A program made the position numbers and the translations under genes. Below are positions 10,632-46,929 of a DNA stretch of 64,000 nt, piece by piece. The notes beneath the pieces were generated by a model. That model ran no database searches. It saw nothing but the letters and a program-made list of their open reading frames with translations, and was not told the DNA's origin. The DNA is from a bacterium. GTDB taxonomy: Bacteria; Patescibacteriota; Minisyncoccia; CAIUEV01. Positions within the stretch are counted from its first letter, which is position 1. Each line of letters starts with the position of its first letter. The stretch covers positions 4,521 through 68,520 of the forward strand of contig JAJXZR010000015.1 in NCBI GenBank assembly GCA_021779915.1, in the 5' to 3' direction.

Positions 10632-10844
10632 TGTCATCCCGGGCTTGACCCGGGATCCAGTTAGTCTTATTAATTATTCTAATTGTTCTAATTAACCTAA
10701 TTGTTCTAAACAAAATCACAAGAACCAATTTTTTAAAAAATTTATTTATTGATACTTGGTGCTTTTTTAGAATAATTAGTATAATTAGGTCAATTAGAGT
10801 AATTTTACGTTCTCCTGGATCCCGGGTCAAGCCCGGGATGACAC
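10632..10844. mobile_element. MITE-like nested palindromic element, subtype A (copy 2)
   Basis: tgtcatcccgggcttgacccgggatccag ... cctggatcccgggtcaagcccgggatgacac. About 85% identical to copy 1, including the internal inverted repeat. Confidence 0.65.
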
Positions 10845-24717: not shown

Positions 24718-25932
24718 TTAACAAAAGATTAACATATTTTTGTAAGCTGTCAAAAAAACGAGGAGTTTAGTGGCAAGTAAAAAGTTGCAAATTACAAAAA
24801 TTTTTCTTTCCACTTTTAGCTTGCTACTTGCAACTAATTTCCCCACTATCTTCCTTCTCAATCTAAACGTATTCGCCTGTTCAAACATTCCATAATAAGA
24901 ACAAAAACCGCAGAAAGCCTTTCTTTTTTGTTGTGCTGAAATTTCTCCAAGTCTTGAAATCTTTATCCATTCTTCCAGCTTTTTATAAGCGTTTCCCTTG
25001 GTTCGATTTTTTATATACACCCTGTAAGGCAAAATGATTCGACCAAGAAACATCACTCCCTTGCTGTAGTGTTGAAGATAAAATTTTTTTCGATGGAGGT
25101 GAAGGAATAGATTGTTGCTGAGATATTCATCCAGAACAGGGAAAAATAGTTTTAGAAAATCCTTGTCTTCGTGAACAAACAGAAGATCGTCGACATATCG
25201 ACCGTAATATTTACATCCCAGAATATTTTTAATGAAATGATCAAAATCATTGAGATAAATGTTGGCAAAAAGTTGGGAGGTCAGGTTTCCGATTGGCAAG
25301 CCTCTGTCTTTTTCTGAAAAAAACAAGCTTTTTGATTTGGGAAGGCCAACCCAGTTTTCCTTTCTTCCTTTAACGACACAGTTTTTGGTTGGGTCGTTGA
25401 AAAGGACTTTTCGTGTAAGCCAGAGGACCAGTTCTTTGTCAAAACCAATCCTGAATTCAAATTTTTTAAGAATTTTCTCAATTTTTTCAAAAAGAATGTT
25501 CTTGTCGATTGACATAAAATAGCCTGAGATGTCGAGTTTCAGAATGTAGCAGTTCTGTTGATAATTTTTTGAGCAGGAACGGATAAAATGCTCCGCTCTT
25601 TTTCCACCACAAGAAGTCCCTCTACCGAAACGGCAACTGTAACTGTCGTTTATAAAAATCCTTTCACAAAGGGGATTGAGATAGTTGAAAATCAAATGGT
25701 GGACAATTCGGTCACGGAAATCACCGGCAAAAATTTCTCTTTTGACCGGAGAGAAAGAAACAAAACAAATGCTTCGGGAAATCTCATATTTCCGACTAAC
25801 AATTTCCTTGTAAAGTCGAAAAAGTTCCTTTTCATAATTAAGTTCAAACCTTATGGCGCTTGCAGTTTTTCTCTTGTGCTTCCGCGCATCGAAGTAAGCT
25901 TGGAAAAGATCGAGGAGGAGTTGGGGAGGCAT
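24718..25932 (-). CDS. Diversity-generating retroelement (DGR) reverse transcriptase
   Basis: RT motif 3 KLDISGYFMSID, motif 4 GLPIGNLTSQLFANIYL (DGR-specific IGxxxSQ in place of QGxxxSP), motif 5 GRYVDDLLFV, motif 2 SCRFGRGT. The likely true start is MPPQ at 25932; the ORF-track start at 25971 lies inside an octamer repeat. Confidence 0.85.
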   Translation of the reverse strand: MPPQLLLDLFQAYFDARKHKRKTASAIRFELNYEKELFRLYKEIVSRKYEISRSICFVSFSPVKREIFAGDFRDRIVHHLIFNYLNPLCERIFINDSYSCRFGRGTSCGGKRAEHFIRSCSKNYQQNCYILKLDISGYFMSIDKNILFEKIEKILKKFEFRIGFDKELVLWLTRKVLFNDPTKNCVVKGRKENWVGLPKSKSLFFSEKDRGLPIGNLTSQLFANIYLNDFDHFIKNILGCKYYGRYVDDLLFVHEDKDFLKLFFPVLDEYLSNNLFLHLHRKKFYLQHYSKGVMFLGRIILPYRVYIKNRTKGNAYKKLEEWIKISRLGEISAQQKRKAFCGFCSYYGMFEQANTFRLRRKIVGKLVASSKLKVERKIFVICNFLLATKLLVFLTAYKNMLIFC

Positions 25933-26105
25933 AGATAGATGAGTAGCAAGTAGGAAAGTAGCAAGTAGCAAGAATTATGAGAGTTGCAAGTTGCAAGTTG
26001 CAAGTTGCAAGTTGCAAGAAAAAATTCTTGTTACTTATTACTTGTTACTTTTTCTCTTGCTACTTGTTACTTGTTACTTGCCACTTGTCATACTTGCTAC
26101 TAATT
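25933..26105. repeat. Octamer tandem-repeat array (GTAGCAAG/GTTGCAAG x ~9 followed by CTTGTTAC/CTTGCTAC x ~8) forming an imperfect long hairpin
   Basis: agtagcaagtaggaaagtagcaagtagcaag...gttgcaag x5 ... cttgttacttattacttgttac...cttgctacttgttacttgttacttgccacttg. Lies between the RT start and the TR. Confidence 0.6.
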
Positions 26106-26143
26106 TCCGGGCTCCTCCCCTTACGGTGAGGAAGCATTTTTGT

Positions 26144-26326
26144 CAGTGCTTGAGGCAACGAACCGAAAAGCCGTTCGCCTTCGAATTCAGGTTCCGATTG
26201 ACCGTGGCGTTACTCGAATTCAGATTGCGATTCCATGCGGACGTACCACTGGGGGAAGACGACCAAAAGTTGGCGTTCGTCCCGAGATTGGCAAAGGAGC
26301 CATCGGTATTGCGGTTGCCGGCTAGC
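26144..26326 (-). other. DGR template repeat (TR)
   Basis: 183 bp, about 88% identical to 27047-27229. In coding sense every non-synonymous mismatch lies at an A of an AAC/AAT (Asn) codon in this copy. Confidence 0.85.
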
Positions 26327-26581
26327 GCTATAATAATCATTAAACTATTTACCCTTTGCCAAAGGCAAAAAATAAACGAGACCTTGCTGGGAAAGACCTC
26401 CATACCTCGCTTAAAGTTCGTCTAAACGAGAAGATTATTGGACTGACGAAATGGCACTCTTACCTGCGCCGTAGCAACAAGCAACTCCGGCCCGAACGAG
26501 TAACAAGTAAAGAAAGTTGCAAGTTACAAGAAGAAAGTAGTAAGTTGCAAGAATTATGAGAGTTGCAAGAAAAAATTCTTG

Positions 26582-26926
26582 TCACTTGCTACTCGTTCTC
26601 CATCCTGTCAACTGTTTGCTCACTCTCTCCAACTTCAAATTCAACGTGACGAACTTGTCTATATCGATCAGTTTGAGATCATTGGATAATCGCAGGAATA
26701 ATCTGATTGTTTCGACGTTTTCCCGCGCCTTTTGAATGTTTTCTTTTCTTTTTTCAAAAGAGCTGTTGGCTCGATAGATGTTCACGATCATCTCAATCAT
26801 TTCTTTCTTCATACTCTCTCCCAGGGTGAATTTGTATTCCCGAGAGAAGTTTCTGATGAATTTGAACAAATCCAGCAGAAGCTCATAACTGTCGTGGTAA
26901 ACTGGAAGATCGCTGGAAAGGGACAT
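26582..26926 (-). CDS. avd: DGR accessory variability determinant (Avd-like four-helix-bundle protein)
   Basis: 114 aa, basic, predicted all-helical. Sits between the target/VR and the TR/RT, as in canonical DGR cassettes. Confidence 0.65.
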   Translation of the reverse strand: MSLSSDLPVYHDSYELLLDLFKFIRNFSREYKFTLGESMKKEMIEMIVNIYRANSSFEKRKENIQKARENVETIRLFLRLSNDLKLIDIDKFVTLNLKLERVSKQLTGWRTSSK

Positions 26927-27007
26927 GGGGGGGAGTTACAAGTTGTAAGTAAAAAGTGGCAAGATTTTTTTCTTGCAACTTACTACTTGTAACTTGTAAC
27001 TCCCCCC
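26927..27007. repeat. GC-clamped hairpin (ggggggagttacaagttgtaag...cttgtaacttgtaactcccccc) immediately 3' of the VR
   Basis: Arms of about 35 nt built from GYWRCAAG octamers and closed by a G7/C7 clamp. Lies between the target stop (27046) and the avd start. Confidence 0.55.
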
Positions 27008-27045
27008 TCATTTTTAAAGAGTCAAAGAGTCAAAGAGTCAAAGAG

Positions 27046-29250
27046 TCAGTCCTTGAGGCAACGGACAGAAAAGCCGTACGCCTTCGAATTCAGGGTCCGA
27101 TAGACCGTGGCGTTGCTCGAATTCAGATCGCGATGCCATGCAGACGTACCACTGGGAGAGGAAGACCAAAAGTAGGCGTTCGTCCCGAGAAGGGCAAACG
27201 AGCCATCGGTATTGCGGTAGCCGGCTAGCAGGCCAGTAAAGTTAGAAGTTCCTCCTGACTTCAATTTGGTGCCGGCAGTGGAACAATCCCAAGTTCCGCT
27301 TCGGTTGGCATCGCAGGTTTGACCGGTGTCTTTCAAATAATTTTCCAGTTCGTACTGCTGGGCGTCGGTCGGAATATGCCAGCTCGTGGGACAGATGCCT
27401 TGAGCTCCGGGGGTTGTGGAATAGGCCATGGCTTCATCCCACTGGTAAAGGCCGCCATAGGTGTTGCAATTGTTGGTATCGTTGCTATAGCACCATTTCT
27501 CGACAGTGCCGTTGTTGGTTGGCATCGTAGAACCACTGGCAAGCATCGTGCCGAGTTTAAGGTTTTGTTTCATCCAGCATTGGTTGCCGATAAGGACAGT
27601 GTCATAGACATTGTTTTCGGCGTCCAACACCTGACTGACACCGCAAACAAAATCAGAGACCACGCAGTTGCCTGATCCATCGCATCGTTTGTTGAAACCG
27701 CAAGTTTGGGAATTGTTGATGTTGGTCCAGTCGCCCACTTGACCGGAAGACGAGACGGTTTTTTGCTGGCAATAATAGTCGCCCACTCGGCCATCGCCAT
27801 TTCTGAAGTTGGTAAAGTTGCTGGCATTGACCAATGTCGCACTAATATTGGTAGCGTTGACCGTAGTCGCACCAACGTTTCCGGTCGTCGTGATATTGCC
27901 GCTTCCCAAACTGAAATTGCCCGATCCGTCCGTGACGGGAATGATTGAATTTCCGCCAGTAGCAGAAGTCTCTTTATCATCCAATTTATCGGCATTGAGG
28001 TTGGTAACTTTGGTGGTGGAAGCGACGGTGAGCGGGGAAGTACCGGTTGCCACAGTTGAAGTCAGGGTGGAAGCGGAAACAGAACTGGCAGCGATGGAAC
28101 CGGTGGTGGAAATGGAAATGTCAGATTTTAAGTCTGATCCGGTGATGGTTCCGTCCGCAATGGAAGCGGAATTGACGCTGGCAGTTTCAATGATGCCAGA
28201 AGTGTTGACGGAAAAAACTGAATTGTCACTGTTATTGGTAATTTTGAGTGGTGAAGCCGATTGGGAAGAAGCCATCTTGAGAATGGTTACCACGGTTGGA
28301 GCCTGGTAGGCAACGGTTTGACTGGAAGCTGGATCGGTGTGGATGGTTTCATTGGTGAGTTCTGAGATAGCCGTTTGGGTGTTAGTAGAAGCAATTTGAG
28401 TGGTCGGCGTGAAAGAAATGGCAGTAGCGGGATGAGAGGAAGCTGCATCTCGGTTTTGGAGATCATTATGATTGACGGTTGCTACATTAGCCACTTTATG
28501 CCAGGTGTTGTCAGAGTTGTCACAGCGGTAAATCCAGTTTTCATCTTTCACAAGCCGGGATTGCCCGTCAGATCCACTGTTACAATCCGGCAAATCGGAA
28601 TGGGAAGTGACCGGATCTTTCCATTTGAGATTGTTGATGTTGGTGGAAAGCTGGTTGTCCACATAGGCTTTGTTAGCGGCGTCAGTGTCGCTGGTGGGAG
28701 TTGCGATGTTGGTGATTTTGTTGGTTTCCAGGGATAAGGGTTTGGAGAGTTTAAAATTCTCACTGCCTTTGTCATAGGTAAGGGAACGGGCAGAGGAACC
28801 GAAAAGAAGGTTGATGTCACTTCCTGTTTGCCCAATAGTGAAGGTGTTTTGGTTGGTACCGGAATCAGTGTTCTGGTCATGAATTTGGGAGATGTTTTTG
28901 TTGCCTAAAGCGATGTTTGAATCGTTATTGTCTACTAGTTCTCCCAGTTTGTTTTTTTCGGTGTTGGTGGGATAATCGGGAATGTTAAGTTTACTTCTAT
29001 CAATACTGGCATCTGAGGCAATATCTTCGTTTTTAATCGTTCCGTTTTTGATTTTGTCTCCGGTGATAAGATCGTCCGCAATCACCCTGAGGTTTGCGAT
29101 GGCTCCGTCCTTGAGTTGCGCATCCCCAATGGACTGAGTAACAATCCTAATTTTCTGTTTAACAGCCTTTCTAAGGGAAGCATTGGAAAAAGAAGTGACG
29201 GCTAGAACGGTGAGGAGGGAAATGAGGAAGGTGGTTTTTGGTTTGGACAT
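27046..29250 (-). CDS. DGR target protein: secreted Ser/Thr-rich protein with C-terminal FISUMP-like (C-type-lectin fold) variable domain
   Basis: Signal peptide MSKPKTTFLISLLTVLAVTSFSNASL. C-terminal NQCWMKQNL...YGGLYQWDEA...CPTSWHIPT...LLAGYRNTDGSF..FWSSS...GFSVRCLKD, with the VR covering the last ~60 codons. GC-richer than flanking DNA. Overlapping ORFs in other frames are rejected. Confidence 0.85.
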   Translation of the reverse strand: MSKPKTTFLISLLTVLAVTSFSNASLRKAVKQKIRIVTQSIGDAQLKDGAIANLRVIADDLITGDKIKNGTIKNEDIASDASIDRSKLNIPDYPTNTEKNKLGELVDNNDSNIALGNKNISQIHDQNTDSGTNQNTFTIGQTGSDINLLFGSSARSLTYDKGSENFKLSKPLSLETNKITNIATPTSDTDAANKAYVDNQLSTNINNLKWKDPVTSHSDLPDCNSGSDGQSRLVKDENWIYRCDNSDNTWHKVANVATVNHNDLQNRDAASSHPATAISFTPTTQIASTNTQTAISELTNETIHTDPASSQTVAYQAPTVVTILKMASSQSASPLKITNNSDNSVFSVNTSGIIETASVNSASIADGTITGSDLKSDISISTTGSIAASSVSASTLTSTVATGTSPLTVASTTKVTNLNADKLDDKETSATGGNSIIPVTDGSGNFSLGSGNITTTGNVGATTVNATNISATLVNASNFTNFRNGDGRVGDYYCQQKTVSSSGQVGDWTNINNSQTCGFNKRCDGSGNCVVSDFVCGVSQVLDAENNVYDTVLIGNQCWMKQNLKLGTMLASGSTMPTNNGTVEKWCYSNDTNNCNTYGGLYQWDEAMAYSTTPGAQGICPTSWHIPTDAQQYELENYLKDTGQTCDANRSGTWDCSTAGTKLKSGGTSNFTGLLAGYRNTDGSFALLGTNAYFWSSSPSGTSAWHRDLNSSNATVYRTLNSKAYGFSVRCLKD
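27047..27229 (-). other. DGR variable repeat (VR) at the 3' end of the target gene
   Basis: The TR-encoded Asn positions are replaced by Tyr, Thr, Tyr, Asp, His, Tyr, Leu and Tyr. Non-A differences are all synonymous, except in the extreme 3' (IMH-like) end. Confidence 0.85.
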
Positions 29251-30313: not shown

Positions 30314-30585
30314 TTACAAGTTACAAGCTACAAGCCACAAGCTACAAGCTACAAGCTACAAGCTACAAGCTGCAAGAAGACCCTTGCTACTTGCTACTTG
30401 CTACTTGCTACTTGCTACTTGCTACTTGCTACTTGCTACTATTTTAAATTAAAAATTGGGGTTGTCAAAAAAACGATAAGTTTAGTATCAAGTAAAAAGT
30501 TACAAGAAGAAAGTAGCAAGTTACAGGTAACAAGTTACAAGAAAATTCTTACCACTTGCAACTTGCCACTTTTTACTTGCTACTT
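30314..30585. repeat. Large octamer tandem-repeat arrays (GCTACAAG x ~8; CTTGCTAC x ~9; then mixed GTWRCAAG units)
   Basis: ttacaagttacaagctacaag...ctacaagctgcaag / cttgctacttgctac... Same family as 25933-26105 and 26927-27007. Confidence 0.6.
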
Positions 30586-32233: not shown

Positions 32234-35200
32234 CTATCCCACTGTTCCTTTCCTCTCTAAATTTCCCCAACGGACAAATTTTCCTTTCATTACGCTGACA
32301 AAAACTTTGATCGCAACATAGTACATCAGTTGGCGGTAGAAGAAGCGTTGCAAGAACATCCACAAGAGCAAACTCCAGTCTTCCTTGCGTTCTAAAACAA
32401 AAGCAATGGCACAAGTAATGAAATCGACAACCAAAAAGAATAAATAAAAAAAGAATAATTTTTTAAAGGCAAAAGTGGCTGAATAATCTATTGGGTGCTG
32501 ATATTTCTGGATAGCCACCCAAATCAGGGAAAAAACAATTGTTAGATCCATCAGAGGTGAGATAAGAGGAAAAAGTACCTGGAAAATCAAAATGTTTGGC
32601 AAAGCGATCCACCCAAGAGTACGACATCCCGGACACGACAAAGAATCTTTATGCATCCAAGTGGCCTGTAAAGTCCCATACATCCAGCGAAAACGCTGTT
32701 TTATAAAACCTTTGACCGTATCTGGAGCTTCAGTGTAAGCGAAAGCCTTGTCCTCATAAGCCACTTTATAGCCGGATCTAATGATATGGAAAGTCAAGTC
32801 TGCATCTTCTGCTAAGGTTCGATTGGAAAATCCTCCTGTTTTTAAAATAGCCTCCCGCCTCCAAGCTCCAACTGAACCGGGAACTACTGTAATACAATTC
32901 AAGACTTCAAAAGCCCGACGATCTAAATTTTGACTGGTAATATATTCCAGTGCTTGCCAATAAGTAAGGATATTCAATCGGTTTCCCACTTTAGCATTGC
33001 CCGCCACAGCGCCCACTTTGGGATCGGCAAATCGACGTACTAGCTTGGAAATAGTGTTGGAAAGAAAAACGGTATCAGCATCAAGTGTAACAACTATTTC
33101 CGCTTCGGTTTTGGAAATGCCAAAGTTCAAGGCCTCCGGTTTCCCACCGTTAGATTTTGTAAATATCTCGACATTTTGATTGTCCTTAAAATTTTCTAAT
33201 GCGCTTTGATAGGTTCCATCAGTACTCCCGTCGTCAATAACAATTACTTTCAGGTCGGGATAGTCAGATTTAAGGATGGACTCGACGGTTTTGACAATCA
33301 CTTTTTCTTCATTGTAGGCCGGAATAACCACACTTACACTTGGATGAAATTTCTTGATAGAAGGATACTTTCTAAATTTACTTTTAATTTTTTGAAAGAG
33401 GGCAAGTACTCCAACAAAAATAAATCTCGCAAGTCCCAAGAAGATGCCAATCGTAAAGGCAAAAGATAAGAAAATGAATATCCAATTGACAAATGAGAAG
33501 GCCACATAGCTGAAATCTGACAAAATTAATTCCGCTCCAGAAACTTTGGGCATAATTTTGTCCGGTAAGACTCCAACCAGATCGGACACTTTAACCAGCT
33601 GAAAACCTCTGCTTTGAAGCCCCTCGATAATTCTAGGGAGGGCAGCAATTGTTTGGGTTCGATCTCCTCCTCCGTCATGCAAAAGGACGATATTACCGTC
33701 CCCATTTTCCGCACCCGTTATCACCGAATTGACGATATTATCAATTCCTGGAGAACTCCAGTCTTTGGGATCAATTTTCATTCCAACTGTATAATAACCT
33801 AGTTGATTAACCAACATTAGTGGTTTCACTTGATCAGGATTTTCTGGCTCTACGTCTTCCGCATAAGGAGGACGAAAAAGAAGAGTATGTCTACCCAAAG
33901 CGCTTGCTAATAAACTCTCCGTGGTGTTCAGCTCAAACTTGACCTGCGAATCTGAAATATTGGCAATGTTGGGATGAGTAAAAGTGTGGTTCCCGATTTC
34001 ATTTCCTTTGTCAAAAACCTGTTTAAGCAACTGCTGGTTTTGAGTGGCGTTCATTCCGATAACAAAGAAAGTTCCTTTTACATTGTATTGGTCGAATATT
34101 TTAAGAATTTGCGGAGTATAAACCGGGTCGGGACCATCGTCAAAAGTCAGGGCTATTTTCTTTTTGTCCTCTCCCCCCCAGCGATTTATAATATAAGGAA
34201 AGGGGAAATCCTTAACTTCAGAATTAGTTATTAATCCGGTTTTATCATCGTAAGTAACGGTTCTAGAGCCAGTTTTTGGCGTTGTTGCAACTCTCAAAAT
34301 CTCTCCTGTCCCTTCGTAGTCGATGTCGTAACCATAATCCAAGTTTTGAAGGCTCATTGCAACATCTTTGCTCAGAGTTTGCCTCGATTTAAACACTTGC
34401 CAAATAGAAGGATCTTCTGAACCCATTCTCCAAAGAGCATAACCCCCCACTTTATATTTTCCGGCATCCACAATTTCATTGAAAGCTGTTACTGCGTCTA
34501 ATAAAAAAACTTTATGGATAATATTATTATCATCATAGTATTCATAAATTTCGTTCAAATTGTTCGGATCGAGAACTATTTTGCCTTGCGATTCTCTGGC
34601 TACTCTGATTGCGTCTTGGAAAGTGTAAGTAACTGCTGTTTTTTGTTTGTCTTCCCAGTCATATCCATAGTTTCCCAAGGCTACGACATATTTTTCACTG
34701 GGAACCTCAGAAAAACGCTTAGCAATGGAATCTAAAAACCATTTTTCCGAAGCAACTGGACCGGGCGAATCTCCATCCGAATGCTCATCATAAGCCATCA
34801 GAATTAAAAAATCGCTAACTTCTGCAAGACTTTTTGTGTTAAAATTATTATCGTCTACTGGAATGTTCATTGAAACCTCCAGTCCTAATGGATGAAATTT
34901 GGAGTAAAGCTCCTTCATAAAAAGCAACAAATCGGGTTGGGCATTTTTGGGAACACTCTCATAATCTATCGATATTCCACTAAATTTATTGCTTTGAACA
35001 AACTCAAGAATTTTATTTATATTGTTCGTGCGATTGCCTGGATCCCCCAACATTTTTCCGAGCTTATCTCCGTTCCAAGACTGAGTGTTGGAATCATAGT
35101 TGTTAATAAGGGGAGTAATGGGCAAGTCCGGTCGATTGGATTTGATAAAATCCATTGCTAAATTTTGTCTGTCCTGATCGTCCACCGCAATATTTCCTTG

Positions 35201-35617
35201 CTCATCGGAAAGGTGGATCCATTCAGGAACCAGCTCGTCAATATTGCCGATATTGGTTTTTAGGGAAGTGAGGCTGGTATCGTCCCAATTCACATAAAAA
35301 ACCATTAGCTTGGGTTTGTAGTTAGATGGGACGATATTGGAGCTATTTGAATTTTTATTATTAACAGGGGAATTCGCATTGAGTTGAGTTTTCACTTTAT
35401 TCCCAGTGGATTTGAAAGTAATCGGTCTTTCCCGATAAACAGAAACCGGATTTGAGAGAGGCAGAGAAGGAAGTTCCCCAATCTTAGCTACGCTAAAAAC
35501 AGTCGCGATGAAAGCAACCGTCAAAATAAAACTGACGGTTGCTACCGTCCATTTATAATATTTCCACCTTTTTCTGTCAGGATCATAAAAGACGGGGGAT
35601 TCTGTTTGAGTAGACAT
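32234..35617 (-). CDS. Tri-domain exopolysaccharide synthase: GH18-like domain, CE4 polysaccharide deacetylase and processive family-2 glycosyltransferase (PgaC/IcaA-like) in one polypeptide
   Basis: N-terminal TM. GH18-like GISIDYE. NodB TFDDGP ... HTFTHPN. GT2 VVIPAYNEE...VIDDGSTDGT...DADT...QRFRWMYG (Q..RW), followed by C-terminal TMs. Confidence 0.75.
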   Translation of the reverse strand: MSTQTESPVFYDPDRKRWKYYKWTVATVSFILTVAFIATVFSVAKIGELPSLPLSNPVSVYRERPITFKSTGNKVKTQLNANSPVNNKNSNSSNIVPSNYKPKLMVFYVNWDDTSLTSLKTNIGNIDELVPEWIHLSDEQGNIAVDDQDRQNLAMDFIKSNRPDLPITPLINNYDSNTQSWNGDKLGKMLGDPGNRTNNINKILEFVQSNKFSGISIDYESVPKNAQPDLLLFMKELYSKFHPLGLEVSMNIPVDDNNFNTKSLAEVSDFLILMAYDEHSDGDSPGPVASEKWFLDSIAKRFSEVPSEKYVVALGNYGYDWEDKQKTAVTYTFQDAIRVARESQGKIVLDPNNLNEIYEYYDDNNIIHKVFLLDAVTAFNEIVDAGKYKVGGYALWRMGSEDPSIWQVFKSRQTLSKDVAMSLQNLDYGYDIDYEGTGEILRVATTPKTGSRTVTYDDKTGLITNSEVKDFPFPYIINRWGGEDKKKIALTFDDGPDPVYTPQILKIFDQYNVKGTFFVIGMNATQNQQLLKQVFDKGNEIGNHTFTHPNIANISDSQVKFELNTTESLLASALGRHTLLFRPPYAEDVEPENPDQVKPLMLVNQLGYYTVGMKIDPKDWSSPGIDNIVNSVITGAENGDGNIVLLHDGGGDRTQTIAALPRIIEGLQSRGFQLVKVSDLVGVLPDKIMPKVSGAELILSDFSYVAFSFVNWIFIFLSFAFTIGIFLGLARFIFVGVLALFQKIKSKFRKYPSIKKFHPSVSVVIPAYNEEKVIVKTVESILKSDYPDLKVIVIDDGSTDGTYQSALENFKDNQNVEIFTKSNGGKPEALNFGISKTEAEIVVTLDADTVFLSNTISKLVRRFADPKVGAVAGNAKVGNRLNILTYWQALEYITSQNLDRRAFEVLNCITVVPGSVGAWRREAILKTGGFSNRTLAEDADLTFHIIRSGYKVAYEDKAFAYTEAPDTVKGFIKQRFRWMYGTLQATWMHKDSLSCPGCRTLGWIALPNILIFQVLFPLISPLMDLTIVFSLIWVAIQKYQHPIDYSATFAFKKLFFFYLFFLVVDFITCAIAFVLERKEDWSLLLWMFLQRFFYRQLMYYVAIKVFVSVMKGKFVRWGNLERKGTVG

Positions 35618-35661
35618 AGGATTAGCATAGCACGAAAAAACAAGAAATGTTCATACCACAA

Positions 35662-35883
35662 TATCATCCCGGGTTTGACCCGGGATCCAGAAGGATATAA
35701 AATTGCTCTAATTAACCTAATTATACTAATTAACCTAAAAAAGCACCAAATACCAAACAATAAAAAAATAAATCTTAGAAATTAGTTTTTGGGATTTTGT
35801 TTAGAATAATTAGGTCAATTAGAGTAATTAGAATAATTAATGAGTCTAACCTGGATCCCCGGTCGACACGCCGGGGATGACAC
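35662..35883. mobile_element. MITE-like element, subtype A (copy 3)
   Basis: atcatcccgggtttgacccgggatccag ... cctggatccccggtcgacacgccggggatgacac. The internal inverted repeat is identical in design to the copies at 1152, 10632 and 46711. Confidence 0.65.
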
Positions 35884-35944
35884 GAGAGAAGCGAATTTTA
35901 ATCTTTTTTTATTTGAAAATTGGAAATTGGAAATTCTATCTACT

Positions 35945-36877
35945 CTATTCCCAACAAACCCCGGACGTTGTCACGATGTTTTTCCAAGGACCATTTGGCA
36001 CATCCTTTTGGTCTACAAACTGCCAACTCGTGGTGTCGATGTCTTTAAGGCCGAGATAGTCGTTAACGGCTGGAGAAACGTCTAGACCGGCATCTTTATT
36101 AGTTTTGCTTTGGGGGCTGGCGCCTCCAAAAACATAATTGCTGTCATTTTCCCCGAATGGCCCAACATCTTCCCACTGGGCATAAGCCACTTTGTTTCCC
36201 TTGATAATCTTTATCCAACGATTTTTGCAAATAGATTCGCCATCACCCCAATTTTTTTCTCCAAACCAAGGGATAAGAGTTGCAATATCTTTTTTTCTGT
36301 TGCCATTTTCGTCAAAATCATTGTAGGGAAGGGCGAAATAGAACGGATTTTCCTTGGGGGTGAACTTTGAAGGCAAAAAACCATTTCTTTTTGCGGGATC
36401 ATCCACTCCACCATAATGACTAACCCACTTGTCGTCCCAAGCGCTCGGAGAATTTGAAATATTCTTATTATCTTCTCCTGCTTCTTCTCCTATCCAGAAA
36501 TAAGTGGTAGAAATATTGCTATGAAGAGGATACTGGCTACTGCTCACAACGCTATCCGGAGTCAAGTTTGTTGCCAAAGGATTGACCGACCGGCTGATTG
36601 CCTTTGTAACTTTTTTATACTCTTTATGAGTAATGTTGGGTAGGTATTTTTTCCATAAAGAAACGTCCACATTGTTTCTTTCAAGCATCCTTTGCCATTT
36701 TGATTTTGTTTTGGCTTCAATATTTTTCGGTCCGTTCTCGCCCCTAGACAAATGATCATAGACAAAAAACAGTACAGGCACCAAAAAAAGCATTGATAAG
36801 AATAGTAATAAGGTTTTATTTTTAGGCATTTTCGATATTTTTAGGTGTAATCTATTTAAAGACATAAACCAAAACAA
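35945..36877 (-). CDS. Secreted/membrane-anchored hypothetical protein
   Basis: N-terminal hydrophobic anchor. No recognised catalytic motif. Confidence 0.5.
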   Translation of the reverse strand: MFWFMSLNRLHLKISKMPKNKTLLLFLSMLFLVPVLFFVYDHLSRGENGPKNIEAKTKSKWQRMLERNNVDVSLWKKYLPNITHKEYKKVTKAISRSVNPLATNLTPDSVVSSSQYPLHSNISTTYFWIGEEAGEDNKNISNSPSAWDDKWVSHYGGVDDPAKRNGFLPSKFTPKENPFYFALPYNDFDENGNRKKDIATLIPWFGEKNWGDGESICKNRWIKIIKGNKVAYAQWEDVGPFGENDSNYVFGGASPQSKTNKDAGLDVSPAVNDYLGLKDIDTTSWQFVDQKDVPNGPWKNIVTTSGVCWE

Positions 36878-37082: not shown

Positions 37083-39656
37083 ATGAATAGTTCTACCGAA
37101 CAGTCCGCCATGATAGGCTGTAATGGTCTTAATTGCTCTTTTTGCTCTTTTCTGGAGACCATCCAGAATATATTTAATTGGCTATTGGGGATATCTTTTG
37201 CGATGGCAGTCCTTTTTATTGTCTTGGCAGGACTGGCATATTTATCAAGTTCGGGAGATAAAAAGCTCTTAGAAAGAGCAAGAAAGATTTTTATTTACAC
37301 AATTTATGGGTTTGCCTTTGTACTCGGTTCTTTTCTTTTTATCAATGTTTCCTTTTTGATTATTGGAGCAACTAACAAAAACACTTGGTTTCAAATTGAT
37401 TGCTCGGAAGGCTCTACTTTCCAGAAAACATCAAGTCCAGAGGCAGAAACGGCAGTGGCGGTTCCCAATTTGAATTTTGTTGATGCCGGCAACCTTTTCT
37501 TTTCAGCTCAAAACCCAAAGACAGTGACGGATTTAAATGTTGCGACTTTAACCCCCCAAACTTTACTCCAAGATGCTTTAGCCCTTTCAAATGGACAAAA
37601 AATTAGTTTTATAGGCGCAGAAAAAACCCTCAATGAAGACGAGATAAAAAAATATATAAACAAAGAGAAGGGTTTTTCTGTTTCATCTAGCGGAGACAGG
37701 GCGGAAGGGTCTATAATTGGAAATATTATAACTTTAAGAAGAGATGAAGACGGCATAAGTGTAATCCTGGAAGGGGAAGAACCACAAATACTAGGTGAAA
37801 TCAATCAAAACAGCTCCGCCAGCGATTCTGAAAAAATACTAAAAAACTTGATGGGTATCCTTTCCGAGAAAAGTAGCCAGGGAAATAAAATTTATGCTTT
37901 GAATGACAGAAATCAGGAAGAATCTTTTTCGATAGACGAAAAATCGTGTCTGGAAAGTGGTGGGGAAGTGACAGTTTTCCAAAACGAATGTATGGCAAGA
38001 AAATACACTTGTGGAGAAGAAAAAATCCTATGTTCCAGCAGTGAAAAAGAGGTTATGGGTTGCCAGTGTCCTCTTGGAAGCTGTCTTAAAGATCAAAAAT
38101 GCGTAAAAGTAGAAACAACAGCAGACCCTTCTTTGCAAAAAGATCAAGACAACGACAAAGTTCCAGATGATCTGGATCGTTGTCCCAACACCCCCAAGGG
38201 AGAAAAAATTAACGAAGACAGATCCAGCGCTGATTATGGTTGCGCCTGTTCTCAACTATCTTTAAACCAAAGAACTTGTCCTCAAAGCAGATGCGAAGGA
38301 CCTAATTTATTAACCTATCCTTCCTCGGGAAAAGATTCTTGCGTCGATGGCAAGAGGATTATTTTTTACTGCGAACCTAAAACTCAATATAACCCAACGT
38401 GCCAACAAAGTTTTGTTCCCAATATCCCTTCCACTAGTCAAAACAAAGGAAGTGGTGGAAGCAACCCTCCGATTGATTTATCTAGCCTTTTGGGCAAAGG
38501 AGGGTCAGGAAGTGGCAGTTCTGGTGGAGGATCAGGCAGTGGCGGTGGCAACGGTGGCGGTGGCGGAGGCACCAATCCTACTGGCGGAAACGGCAATACC
38601 AGCTCTCCATCCTCTCCGCTGCCTCCTTCTCAAAACACTTCTTTGACTCCTCAGGAAGCTTTTGAGGGAGGGAATGGTTCAGAAAAAGACCCTTTTGCAA
38701 TGAGCGACAGAGCTATACAAGAAGTTTTTTCTTACAATGAAGATACCGGAAAAATCGATTTGAACGAAAAATGGCAATCAAAATTGGGAGTTTGTGGCAA
38801 AGAAGCGTATCTTAAAATTCCTGAAAAGAAAAAAATTATTGATGCCCTAAATAAAAAAAAGGATGACAAAAATTCTTCCGACAACAAATCAAAAGATAGC
38901 TCCACTGATAATACTTCAAAAGATAAACCATCAGATAGTTCAGATAGTTCCTCAAGTAGTTCAGATAACAATTCCCCAACGGATAAATCTTCGGACAATT
39001 CAAACAAAGAAAAAATTTCAAAAGAAAATGCTGACCGTTTAGAAAAAGACAAGGACGCTATCAAGGCTCCCAACGGGACTGATGTCGTTGATAAAAAAAG
39101 CAACAAAACAACTACGGTTGATAAAAATAGTGATGGAAACGATCCAAGCAAGACCAAGGATGATTCTCTCAATCCCGACGATCAGCTTCTTAAAAGTTCT
39201 TCTAAAGGGTGTGGAATAAACTCTGATTATGTACCAAAAAATAGCAAAGAAAGTAAGGCACTTGAAAAAGGTCTAGTTAAGGCTGCCGATGACACTTTCA
39301 CAACAAAAAACAATGGTGCTTCAGACTTTTTTACTCCTGAAATCGCTGAAAAACTTGCCAAAGCATCTCAAATTGCTAGAGATGAATATGGTCTGGGACT
39401 AAATCTCACCAGTGGATACCGCTCTTATGAGGAACAAGCTTGGCTTTGGGCCAATCGAAGCGGTGTTCCCGTAGCTCCCCCAGGGTCATCCCGCCACGAG
39501 ACCGGCGAAGCAGTCGATGTCAGTCTAGTAAATTTGGATGGTAGTAGAATATCAATGAATGGAGAATGTAGAGCAGCTTTAAGAGATATAATGGTTAAAG
39601 GAGGATTGAGACCTCTCAACAGTGAGTGGTGGCATTTTTCTAGAGATGGTCACTAA
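37083..39656 (+). CDS. Large membrane-anchored surface protein with C-terminal peptidase-M15 (VanY-like D,D-carboxypeptidase) domain
   Basis: N-terminal two-TM hairpin reminiscent of VirB2/TrbC pilins. Cys-rich and TSP3-like DQDNDKVPDDLDRCP segment. Gly-rich and S/D/K-rich low-complexity regions. C-terminal SGYRSYEEQ...SSRHETGEAVDV...WWHF (M15 SxHxxGxAxD). Confidence 0.6.
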   Translation: MNSSTEQSAMIGCNGLNCSFCSFLETIQNIFNWLLGISFAMAVLFIVLAGLAYLSSSGDKKLLERARKIFIYTIYGFAFVLGSFLFINVSFLIIGATNKNTWFQIDCSEGSTFQKTSSPEAETAVAVPNLNFVDAGNLFFSAQNPKTVTDLNVATLTPQTLLQDALALSNGQKISFIGAEKTLNEDEIKKYINKEKGFSVSSSGDRAEGSIIGNIITLRRDEDGISVILEGEEPQILGEINQNSSASDSEKILKNLMGILSEKSSQGNKIYALNDRNQEESFSIDEKSCLESGGEVTVFQNECMARKYTCGEEKILCSSSEKEVMGCQCPLGSCLKDQKCVKVETTADPSLQKDQDNDKVPDDLDRCPNTPKGEKINEDRSSADYGCACSQLSLNQRTCPQSRCEGPNLLTYPSSGKDSCVDGKRIIFYCEPKTQYNPTCQQSFVPNIPSTSQNKGSGGSNPPIDLSSLLGKGGSGSGSSGGGSGSGGGNGGGGGGTNPTGGNGNTSSPSSPLPPSQNTSLTPQEAFEGGNGSEKDPFAMSDRAIQEVFSYNEDTGKIDLNEKWQSKLGVCGKEAYLKIPEKKKIIDALNKKKDDKNSSDNKSKDSSTDNTSKDKPSDSSDSSSSSSDNNSPTDKSSDNSNKEKISKENADRLEKDKDAIKAPNGTDVVDKKSNKTTTVDKNSDGNDPSKTKDDSLNPDDQLLKSSSKGCGINSDYVPKNSKESKALEKGLVKAADDTFTTKNNGASDFFTPEIAEKLAKASQIARDEYGLGLNLTSGYRSYEEQAWLWANRSGVPVAPPGSSRHETGEAVDVSLVNLDGSRISMNGECRAALRDIMVKGGLRPLNSEWWHFSRDGH

Positions 39657-46710: not shown

Positions 46711-46929
46711 GTGTCATCCCCGGCGTGTCGACCGGGGATCCAGGAGAGTGGAAAATTACTCTAATTAACCTAATTATACTAATTGACCTAAAAAAGCACC
46801 AAATACCAATAAATAAATTTTTTTAAATTGGTTCTTGGGATTTTGTTTAGAATAATTAGGTTAATTAGAGTAATTAGAATAATTGGTGAGACTAACCTGG
46901 ATCCCCTGTCGACACGCCGGGGATGACAC
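46711..46929. mobile_element. MITE-like element, subtype A (copy 4)
   Basis: gtgtcatccccggcgtgtcgaccggggatccaggagagtg ... cctggatcccctgtcgacacgccggggatgacac. Confidence 0.65.

Follow-up and report, generated by a model that had tools for sequence, protein, structure and literature searches.

How could one polypeptide make, deacetylate and trim an exopolysaccharide, and which polymer would it make? The question is raised by a gene of a patescibacterial genome (Patescibacteriota; Minisyncoccia; CAIUEV01; assembly GCA_021779915.1), located at 32234..35617 on the minus strand of a stretch of 64,000 nucleotides (nt) from contig JAJXZR010000015.1 (positions 4,521 to 68,520), the whole of which is referred to here as the window. 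In an initial annotation made from the sequence alone, the product was described as a single protein of 1127 amino acids (aa) joining a GH18-like domain, a CE4 deacetylase and a processive GT2 synthase. It was interpreted as an unusual fusion and as a one-protein pathway for a partially deacetylated N-acetylglucosamine (GlcNAc) polymer of the poly-N-acetylglucosamine (PNAG) type, with a possible importance for attachment to host cells. The analysis presented here favors, with a probability of roughly 0.6, a membrane-embedded processive GT2 of the MatB/PgaC type whose chain also bears two processing domains outside the cytoplasm. The gene itself is unremarkable within a very large and widely transferred family.

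The open reading frame (ORF) starts with ATG. Homologues, including two-domain relatives that carry CE4 and GT2, keep the N-terminal motif FYDPxxxRW, which supports this start codon. Pfam recovers the three domains in the order described initially, each above its gathering cut-off: Glyco_hydro_18 (PF00704) at residues 104-399 (E 2.1e-16, 60.9 bits against a cut-off of 29.6), Polysacc_deac_1 (PF01522) at residues 483-587 (E 1.1e-32, 113 bits against 23.1) and Glyco_tranf_2_3/Glycos_transf_2 at residues 759-981 (E 2.9e-36). An ORF of 1127 codons with three significant domains is far beyond what chance would produce. The motifs quoted in the initial annotation are all found in the translation, namely GISIDYE at 214-220, TFDDGP at 491-496, HTFTHPN at 544-550 and QRFRW at 974-978. 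An identical protein had already been deposited publicly (contig JAKBET010000001.1, assembly GCA_021833695.1). Motif counts given below refer to an alignment of the 120 best homologues (50-67% identity), and the finer GH18 columns to a 60-sequence alignment. The ORF and its parts are the following:

32234..35617, minus strand: the whole ORF, a membrane protein with GH18-like, CE4 and GT2 domains (Pfam, homologues).
35486..35617, minus strand: residues 1-44, a predicted cytoplasmic tail rich in lysine and arginine (K/R) with FYDPxxxRW, followed by the first transmembrane (TM) segment, TM1 (helix 16-44; hydropathy, AlphaFold2, charge bias).
35327..35485, minus strand: residues 45-97, a serine/asparagine-rich linker, of which 60-97 are predicted to be disordered with a predicted local distance difference test score (pLDDT) below 50 (AlphaFold2).
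34382..35326, minus strand: residues 98-412, the GH18-like (beta/alpha)8 barrel (Pfam, conservation, Foldseek, alignments).
34172..34345, minus strand: residues 425-482, an all-beta region at the GH18-CE4 junction with five predicted strands (AlphaFold2 strands 432-481, conserved columns).
33548..34171, minus strand: residues 483-690, the CE4/NodB deacetylase domain with five motifs (Pfam, NCBIfam, PDB matches, conservation).
33377..33535, minus strand: residues 695-747, a single long predicted helix, TM2, K/R-rich afterwards (hydropathy, AlphaFold2, charge bias).
32633..33355, minus strand: residues 755-995, the predicted cytoplasmic GT2 catalytic domain with interface helices (Pfam, NCBIfam, PgaC identity, fold).
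32285..32623, minus strand: residues 999-1111, the predicted C-terminal membrane helices 999-1040 and 1045-1075, and helix 1081-1111 (hydropathy, AlphaFold2, charge bias).

Hydrophobic segments on the Kyte-Doolittle scale lie at approximately residues 22-49, 697-744, 1000-1037 and 1046-1077, the first two bracketing residues 45-700. An AlphaFold2 model built from the 60-sequence alignment (mean pLDDT 86.2, predicted TM-score 0.69) consists of a helix at 16-44, a disordered stretch at 60-97, the GH18 barrel at 103-410, an all-beta region at 432-481 that is read as a small beta-sandwich, CE4 at 487-690, a continuous helix at 695-747, GT2 at 761-965, interface helices, and helices at 999-1040, 1045-1075 and 1081-1111. 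Across the 120 homologues, the mean number of K and R residues is 3.5 before TM1 and 1.2 after it, 2.2 before TM2 (with a net charge near zero) and 3.6 after it, 3.8 before helix 999, 0.7 in the loop 1038-1048 and 4.5 in the C-terminal tail. Since hydropathy, this positive-inside charge bias and the model agree, the protein is predicted to have a cytoplasmic N-terminus, followed by TM1, an outside portion with GH18, beta-sandwich and CE4, TM2, an inside GT2 and the C-terminal membrane helices. This is the arrangement proposed initially, with the modifying domains outside and the synthase inside; in the predicted topology CE4 and GH18 lie across the membrane from GT2. Helix 1081-1111 is conserved and Arg/Gln-rich, with Q1090, R1091, Y1094, R1095 and Q1096 invariant, and is probably interfacial given these residues and the predicted cytoplasmic location of both of its ends.

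Within the GT2 domain, D796 (DDG), D846-A-D848, E937-D938 and Q974-R-F-R-W978 are invariant in the homologues. The top NCBIfam match is PgaC_IcaA (TIGR03937; 183.4 bits, E 6.7e-54), with a collinear alignment of residues 737-1106 to model positions 21-387 of 407 that includes the C-terminal TM region. The NodC/chitooligosaccharide synthase model TIGR04242 reaches 102.3 bits over the catalytic domain only, below its cut-off of 550, and the CelA model 92 bits. Of the comparison with PgaB and PgaC suggested initially, the part concerning the synthase holds, as E. coli PgaC is 31% identical over 233 residues (E 3e-35). Furthermore, the fold matches membrane-integrated hyaluronan synthases in Foldseek, and Pfam Chitin_synth matches are weak.

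The five motifs of the CE4 domain (TFDD 491-494, HTFTH 544-548, RPPY 582-585, DPKDW 616-620 and LLH 645-647) are all invariant or nearly so, with D493/D494, H544/H548, R582-P-P-Y585, D619 and H647 identical in 120/120 homologues. The nearest PDB structures are 7y51, 7fbw and PgdA (2c1g).

The integrity of the GH18 signature DxxDxDxE had been left as a check by the initial annotation, and the outcome is divided. The sequence reads S213-G-I-S216-I-D218-Y-E220 and is thus half-degenerate: the D-x-E part is intact, whereas the first two aspartates are replaced by S213 and S216. D218 and E220 are invariant in 120/120 homologues, while position 213 is A or S and position 216 is S or N throughout the family. 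The 60-sequence alignment shows no variation at M274, D277 and W396 and at least 90% conservation at Y276. Catalysis by GH18 enzymes relies most on these positions, which are retained here, and is substrate-assisted, requiring the N-acetyl group of the substrate. A loss of the catalytic residues of two domains, which would have spoken against the initial proposal, is not seen in the alignment, where those of CE4 and GT2 and the GH18 D-x-E are retained. By Foldseek the barrel matches the Chromobacterium 'chitinase' 5jh8 (E 6.7e-22, TM-score 0.89, root-mean-square deviation (rmsd) 2.1 Å), and also SleL and YdhD. With 5jh8, B. subtilis YdhD and Bacillus SleL/YaaH it shares the fold, the catalytic D-x-E, the MxYD motif and a C-terminal Trp; it differs from this group in being tethered to a synthase, in lacking LysM and in occurring outside a sporulation context.

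The family-wide loss of the first two aspartates would also suit a non-catalytic barrel that binds or guides the chain in the manner of a lectin-like 'chitinase-like protein', leaving a pathway of synthase and deacetylase as in MatB. Foldseek indeed returns the non-enzymatic chitinase-like proteins SI-CLP, SPC-40 and YKL-39 as well, and two-domain relatives function without the GH18 module. However, the upstream aspartates are likewise absent from the closest homologues 5jh8 and YdhD, which carry the pattern GI(N/T)(V/I)DFE, and the strict conservation of the remaining active-site positions argues for an enzyme, making a purely lectin-like module unlikely.

The structural neighbours of the two outer domains raise a further alternative, in which GH18 and CE4 would remodel peptidoglycan, either that of the cell itself or that of a host cell, in a SleL/YdhD- and PgdA-like manner, with the glycan made by GT2 being unrelated. 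The nearest solved GH18 structures include the spore-cortex proteins SleL and YaaH and the putative sporulation glycosylase YdhD, PgdA-type deacetylases are among the closest solved CE4 structures beside predicted chitin/xylan deacetylases, and the next gene, on the opposite strand, encodes a VanY/M15 peptidase domain. Against this stands that Pfam detects no LysM or other peptidoglycan-binding modules, and that the fusion and all catalytic residues are kept across phyla with very different envelopes, which argues for a coupled function of the domains. In addition, the authors of the MatAB study propose that the fused CE4 of MatB deacetylates the product of its own synthase (PMC5972031). Action on peptidoglycan is thus considered highly improbable.

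MatB of Streptomyces, which consists of an extracellular CE4 domain, a TM helix and an intracellular PgaC-like GT2, is reported to be a PNAG synthase and to be needed for hyphal aggregation (PMC5972031, PMC4391728). The protein studied here has the same predicted layout of N-terminal TM helix, outside CE4, TM helix and inside PgaC-like GT2. As matA does for matB, a gene for a predicted membrane protein, the partner gene described below, directly precedes the synthase gene. Residues 474-1126 align with residues 112-741 of a 757-aa 'bifunctional polysaccharide deacetylase/GT2' of Kocuria rosea (38% identity, E 3e-127), whose start, MFYDPSGKRW, matches residues 9-18. Annotated, plasmid-borne Streptomyces two-domain relatives are ~39% identical over 97% of the query, the comparison with MatB being made with such relatives and not with SCO2962 or SCO2963 themselves. 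Because of this homology and the common N-terminal FYDPxxKRW, the protein reads as a MatB-type CE4-GT2 enzyme with an extra module of ~375 residues, the GH18-like barrel and beta-sandwich, inserted after TM1 in the interval before CE4. A GH18 match on a Streptomyces plasmid (H63) was considered as a MatA-like link and rejected, as it is a stand-alone GH18 that does not adjoin a MatB-like gene.

The PgaC/PgaB/PgaD/PgaA and IcaA/IcaD/IcaB/IcaC systems follow the same logic of a synthase combined with a deacetylase and a glycoside hydrolase, and PgaC has its GT2 motifs (DDG, DxD, ED, QRxRW) in common with the protein studied here. In contrast to the Pga system, the hydrolase is here a GH18 instead of a GH153 and the CE4 is not PgaB-like, and in contrast to both systems all activities reside on one chain anchored in the cytoplasmic membrane. 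Neither a PgaA-like porin nor a PgaD/IcaD-like gene was found among the called neighbours, small ORFs not having been searched specifically. PgaB-like CE4 domains fused to GT domains have also been described in operons without pgaA and pgaD (Bundalovic-Torma et al. 2020, PMC7112194); the fused proteins of these clades are predicted to be located on the outer side of the inner membrane, and their PNAG production is 'not experimentally confirmed' (PMC7112194). The likeness to the present family is one of description, GH18 not being mentioned in that study (0 occurrences).

In the favored mechanism, the cytoplasmic GT2 would polymerise a sugar activated by uridine diphosphate (UDP), most coherently UDP-GlcNAc, given that a de-N-acetylase and a GH18 are fused to it with both active sites intact. 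The membrane helices of GT2 itself would form a channel threading the chain outward, and on the outer face the tethered CE4 would strip some of the N-acetyl groups, yielding a cationic polymer, whereas the GH18-like barrel would cleave or trim the chain at units that are still acetylated GlcNAc. For Pel and cellulose, the equivalent hydrolases are PelA and BcsZ. In the pga system this trimming role falls to the GH153 domain of PgaB (PMC5933820). In Patescibacteria, the synthase would work together with the conserved, membrane-anchored product of the gene directly upstream. The data establish the identity of the domains, the conservation of their catalytic residues, the predicted topology, the breadth of the family and the synteny of the partner, and from these we infer the sugar, its linkage, the coupling between the domains and any biological role of the synthase fusion.

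Several observations weigh against this reading. The GT2 score remains below the equivalog cut-off of PgaC_IcaA (422.3 bits), and the GH18 family is known for beta-1,4-linked GlcNAc substrates, not beta-1,6. The CE4 domain resembles NodB, the PgdA peptidoglycan GlcNAc deacetylases and predicted chitin/xylan deacetylases; the PgaB half of the comparison suggested initially fails, as the best BLASTP match to E. coli PgaB (CE4 and GH153) has an E value of 0.09 and covers the TFDDG stretch only. The initial assignment to PNAG is not established by these features. Furthermore, the topology is a prediction derived from hydropathy, charge bias and the AlphaFold2 model; no conserved outer-membrane exporter was found among the neighbours of the analysed loci in diderm carriers, and a literature search returned no characterised or biochemically studied three-domain member bearing GH18. 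Finally, IgtG of Streptomyces davaonensis has the annotated CE4 and GT2 membrane architecture in common with the present protein; it contains a DAD motif and is predicted to have four TM helices. It iteratively glucosylates a serine of a mature lasso peptide from UDP-glucose (PMC11912497), so that the CE4-GT2 architecture alone fixes neither donor nor acceptor. IgtG differs in lacking GH18, and no lasso-peptide genes flank the gene studied here.

Within the general mechanism, a beta-1,6 product is somewhat more likely than a beta-1,4 one, as the nearest family of the GT2 (PgaC_IcaA) and the precedent of MatB both point toward beta-1,6 PNAG. The competing possibility is a chitin- or chitosan-like beta-1,4 polymer of GlcNAc and glucosamine, for which GH18 would be a true chitinase-type trimmer and CE4 a chitin-deacetylase-type enzyme. 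The conserved GH18 fold and D-x-E fit this possibility, as do the nearest solved CE4 structures, which are chitin/xylan and peptidoglycan GlcNAc deacetylases and NodB instead of PgaB or IcaB, and the weak Chitin_synth matches. Genomic context adds GH75, a chitosanase family: a GH75 gene lies directly upstream on the same strand in Calothrix sp. NIES-4071 (L004 4811-5644), the Brunnivagina polypeptide (P0107, 1383 aa) has GH75 fused in frame at its N-terminus, and a partial GH75 is attached directly to the GH18 barrel of P0115. In Kocuria a 'chitinase' gene abuts the two-domain relative, with a GH18 match below threshold. However, the GH75 link concerns only 1 of the 85 loci analysed and two of the 120 top homologues, and the full-length collinear match to PgaC_IcaA clearly exceeds those to NodC and CelA. 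Moreover, the CE4 of MatB is NodB-like too, and its product has nonetheless been assigned as PNAG (PMC5972031). The beta-1,4 polymer is thus retained as a minority possibility, doubtful yet the most credible of the alternatives weighed here.

Carried further, the beta-1,4 possibility would make the GH18-CE4-GT2 family a self-contained chitosan machine, by which the polymer is made, deacetylated and trimmed, and which in Patescibacteria would combine with a lineage-specific partner to give a cationic glycan at the cell surface for adhesion to host cells. This proposal builds on GH18 and NodB-type CE4 domains being typical of beta-1,4 substrates and on GH75 being adjacent or fused in some cyanobacterial members, and it appears somewhat less probable still than the beta-1,4 product as such. 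To our knowledge, no one-protein chitosan machine has been described in bacteria.

Two details of these loci are recorded separately. The Kocuria 'chitinase' gene is on a plasmid, convergent at L092 5987-6973, and scores 22.9 bits for GH18 against the cut-off of 29.6. In Brunnivagina P0107 as annotated, a signal-like segment would be added before TM1, which creates a topology puzzle.

As to the fusion, considered unusual in the initial annotation, it proved to be widespread. A word-indexed protein search at E <=1e-20 gave 2968 matches, the best 120 of which (50-67% identity) are all full-length three-domain proteins from Patescibacteria, cyanobacteria (Calothrix, Fischerella, Brasilonema, Nodosilinea), Chloroflexota, Acidobacteriota and Bacillota, the nearest relatives (57-67% identity) being from metagenome-assembled genomes (MAGs) of Moranbacteria and other Patescibacteria. 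The architecture is present in thousands of metagenomic proteins, and a scan of one genome per species gave at least 593 encoding loci. Of these, 80 were kept for further analysis, including loci from Sphingomonas, Rhodanobacter, Elizabethkingia meningoseptica, Mucilaginibacter, Segatella, Gemmatimonadota, Verrucomicrobiia and Anoxybacillus. CE4-GT2 fusions, moreover, were already known (PMC5972031, PMC4391728, PMC7112194). As the fusion occurs in hundreds of species and its CE4-GT2 core is known from MatB, the gene is an ordinary member of a little-studied family. When the GH18 module alone was searched against 1.84 billion cluster representatives, 437 clusters were obtained at E <=1e-30, in which full-length proteins (~1100-1170 aa) are mixed with shorter ones; GH18 proteins of ~480-500 aa could be either stand-alone forms or fragments from contig ends.

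In cultured bacteria, tblastn also located full-length copies on plasmids, namely those of Bacillus mycoides, Deinococcus, Sphingomonas, Sphingobium, Novosphingobium, Prevotella nigrescens and Sulfitobacter, where they are annotated merely as 'glycosyltransferase'. On plasmid p322 of B. mycoides (L088) the synthase gene stands alone with IS6 transposases on both sides, and on the Deinococcus plasmid (L089) the synthase homologue is followed by a sensor diguanylate cyclase gene. This plasmid and insertion-sequence (IS) context, together with more than 50% identity between Patescibacteria and cyanobacteria or Acidobacteriota, suggests that the family has spread horizontally. Clustering of the neighbours of 81 loci revealed no accessory gene that is kept from phylum to phylum. 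Only one neighbour recurs, a multi-TM gene of ~478 aa resembling PMT_2 (GT-C type), present in 25 of the 81 loci, almost all of them labelled Acidobacteriota, and divergently transcribed at position -1 in 19 of the 25 (for example L042 6365-7801, minus strand). A role in attachment to host cells is speculation: most of the listed carriers, such as cyanobacteria, Acidobacteriota and Sphingomonas, are free-living, although Elizabethkingia meningoseptica and Prevotella nigrescens are among the carriers as well.

In Patescibacteria, the description as a one-protein pathway is incomplete, as a conserved gene lies directly upstream of the synthase in 5/5 loci inspected. This gene encodes 272-294 aa without a Pfam domain, and the other neighbours all differ between the loci. 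In the window, it is separated from the synthase gene by a spacer:

35945..36829, minus strand: the partner gene, whose product is called with 294 aa and has a TM helix at its N-terminus; the ORF extends to 36877 if started from TTG (synteny, homologues, AlphaFold2).
35618..35944, minus strand: the partner-synthase spacer, 327 nt, with an array of four copies of TAATTAGNN and two GC-rich hairpins (repeat/hairpin inspection).

The partner shares 48% identity with the product of the gene that occupies the equivalent position in a Moraniibacteriota MAG. Its 2882 homologues are all unnamed or 'hypothetical', and those with a named source come from Patescibacteria MAGs. For more than 20 of the 120 best partner matches, the longest contig has the same length as that of a synthase match. 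A Pfam scan of 47 members gave noise only, and a partner profile found no match in the 80 loci of the species-genome scan, none of which is labelled Patescibacteria. The AlphaFold2 model of the partner (pLDDT 78) gives weak Foldseek matches to double-psi beta-barrel proteins, namely kiwellin (E 5e-4), expansins, barwin-like proteins and a papain inhibitor, with E values from 5e-4 to 1e-2, TM-scores of ~0.2-0.6 and rmsd values of 6-15 Å. These are a weak indication that the partner may carry a domain of the double-psi beta-barrel type on the outer face; that it might bind or cut a glycan is a guess. Because a GH75 gene takes the same position in Calothrix, the partner was also compared with this family and rejected as a remote GH75 chitosanase, with an hhalign probability of 1.3% and a Foldseek E value of 0.09 against a GH75 viral chitosanase. 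The ORF that precedes the S. viridifaciens relative has no Pfam domain, and its hhalign comparison with the partner was not significant.

The weight of the single genome is small, as it contains an ordinary copy of a widespread, automatically annotated protein, and the fusion of synthase and deacetylase was established by MatB. The family, on the other hand, represents a compact unit that seems to be autonomous and to move horizontally: IS elements flank it on Bacillus plasmids, and identity between members of different phyla exceeds 50%. Any recipient cell would gain from it a partly deacetylated aminosugar polymer. Its cultivable carriers (B. mycoides, with the plasmid copy WP_215582752.1, Deinococcus, Sphingomonas, Prevotella nigrescens, Elizabethkingia) make the choice between beta-1,6 and beta-1,4 directly testable. 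Patescibacteria keep very few genes, and the synthase and partner, being strictly paired in them, form a specific candidate for a system of surface-glycan synthesis or adhesion.

The two hairpins of the partner-synthase spacer (ccccgg..ccgggg and cccggg-tcaaa-cccggg) are surrounded by AT-rich DNA. Arrays of about four copies of TAATTAGNN in a 9-nt phase recur in the window at 1295-1332, 10671-10709, 35801-35840 (within the spacer) and 46847-46886, and may represent a common regulatory or repeat element. A promoter and terminator scan of the partner-synthase pair gave matches at chance level.

Divergent from the pair, at 37083-39656 on the plus strand, lies the gene of an 857-aa protein with a T4SS_pilin domain at its N-terminus, a thrombospondin type-3 repeat, and a VanY/M15 D-Ala-D-Ala peptidase domain at its C-terminus. 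The T4SS_pilin domain is common among Patescibacteria.

Elsewhere in the window, a likely diversity-generating retroelement spans 24718-29250, with its genes on the minus strand. It comprises an RVT_1 reverse-transcriptase ORF at 24718-25971 and a 734-aa ORF with a C-terminal Fib_succ_major domain at 27046-29250. A direct repeat of 185 nt, 90% identical between an intergenic copy (26142-26326) and the 3' end of the 734-aa ORF (27045-27229), has 9 of its 18 mismatches at adenines of the intergenic, template-like copy. The GC content of this region is 45-46%, compared to ~37% in the rest of the window. At 25942-26101 (AGTTGCA / CTTGTTA) and 30315-30440 (TACAAGC x8.9 / CTTGCTA x8.3), inverted arrays of 7-nt repeats are arranged back-to-back; they flank the putative cassette and could form long hairpins.

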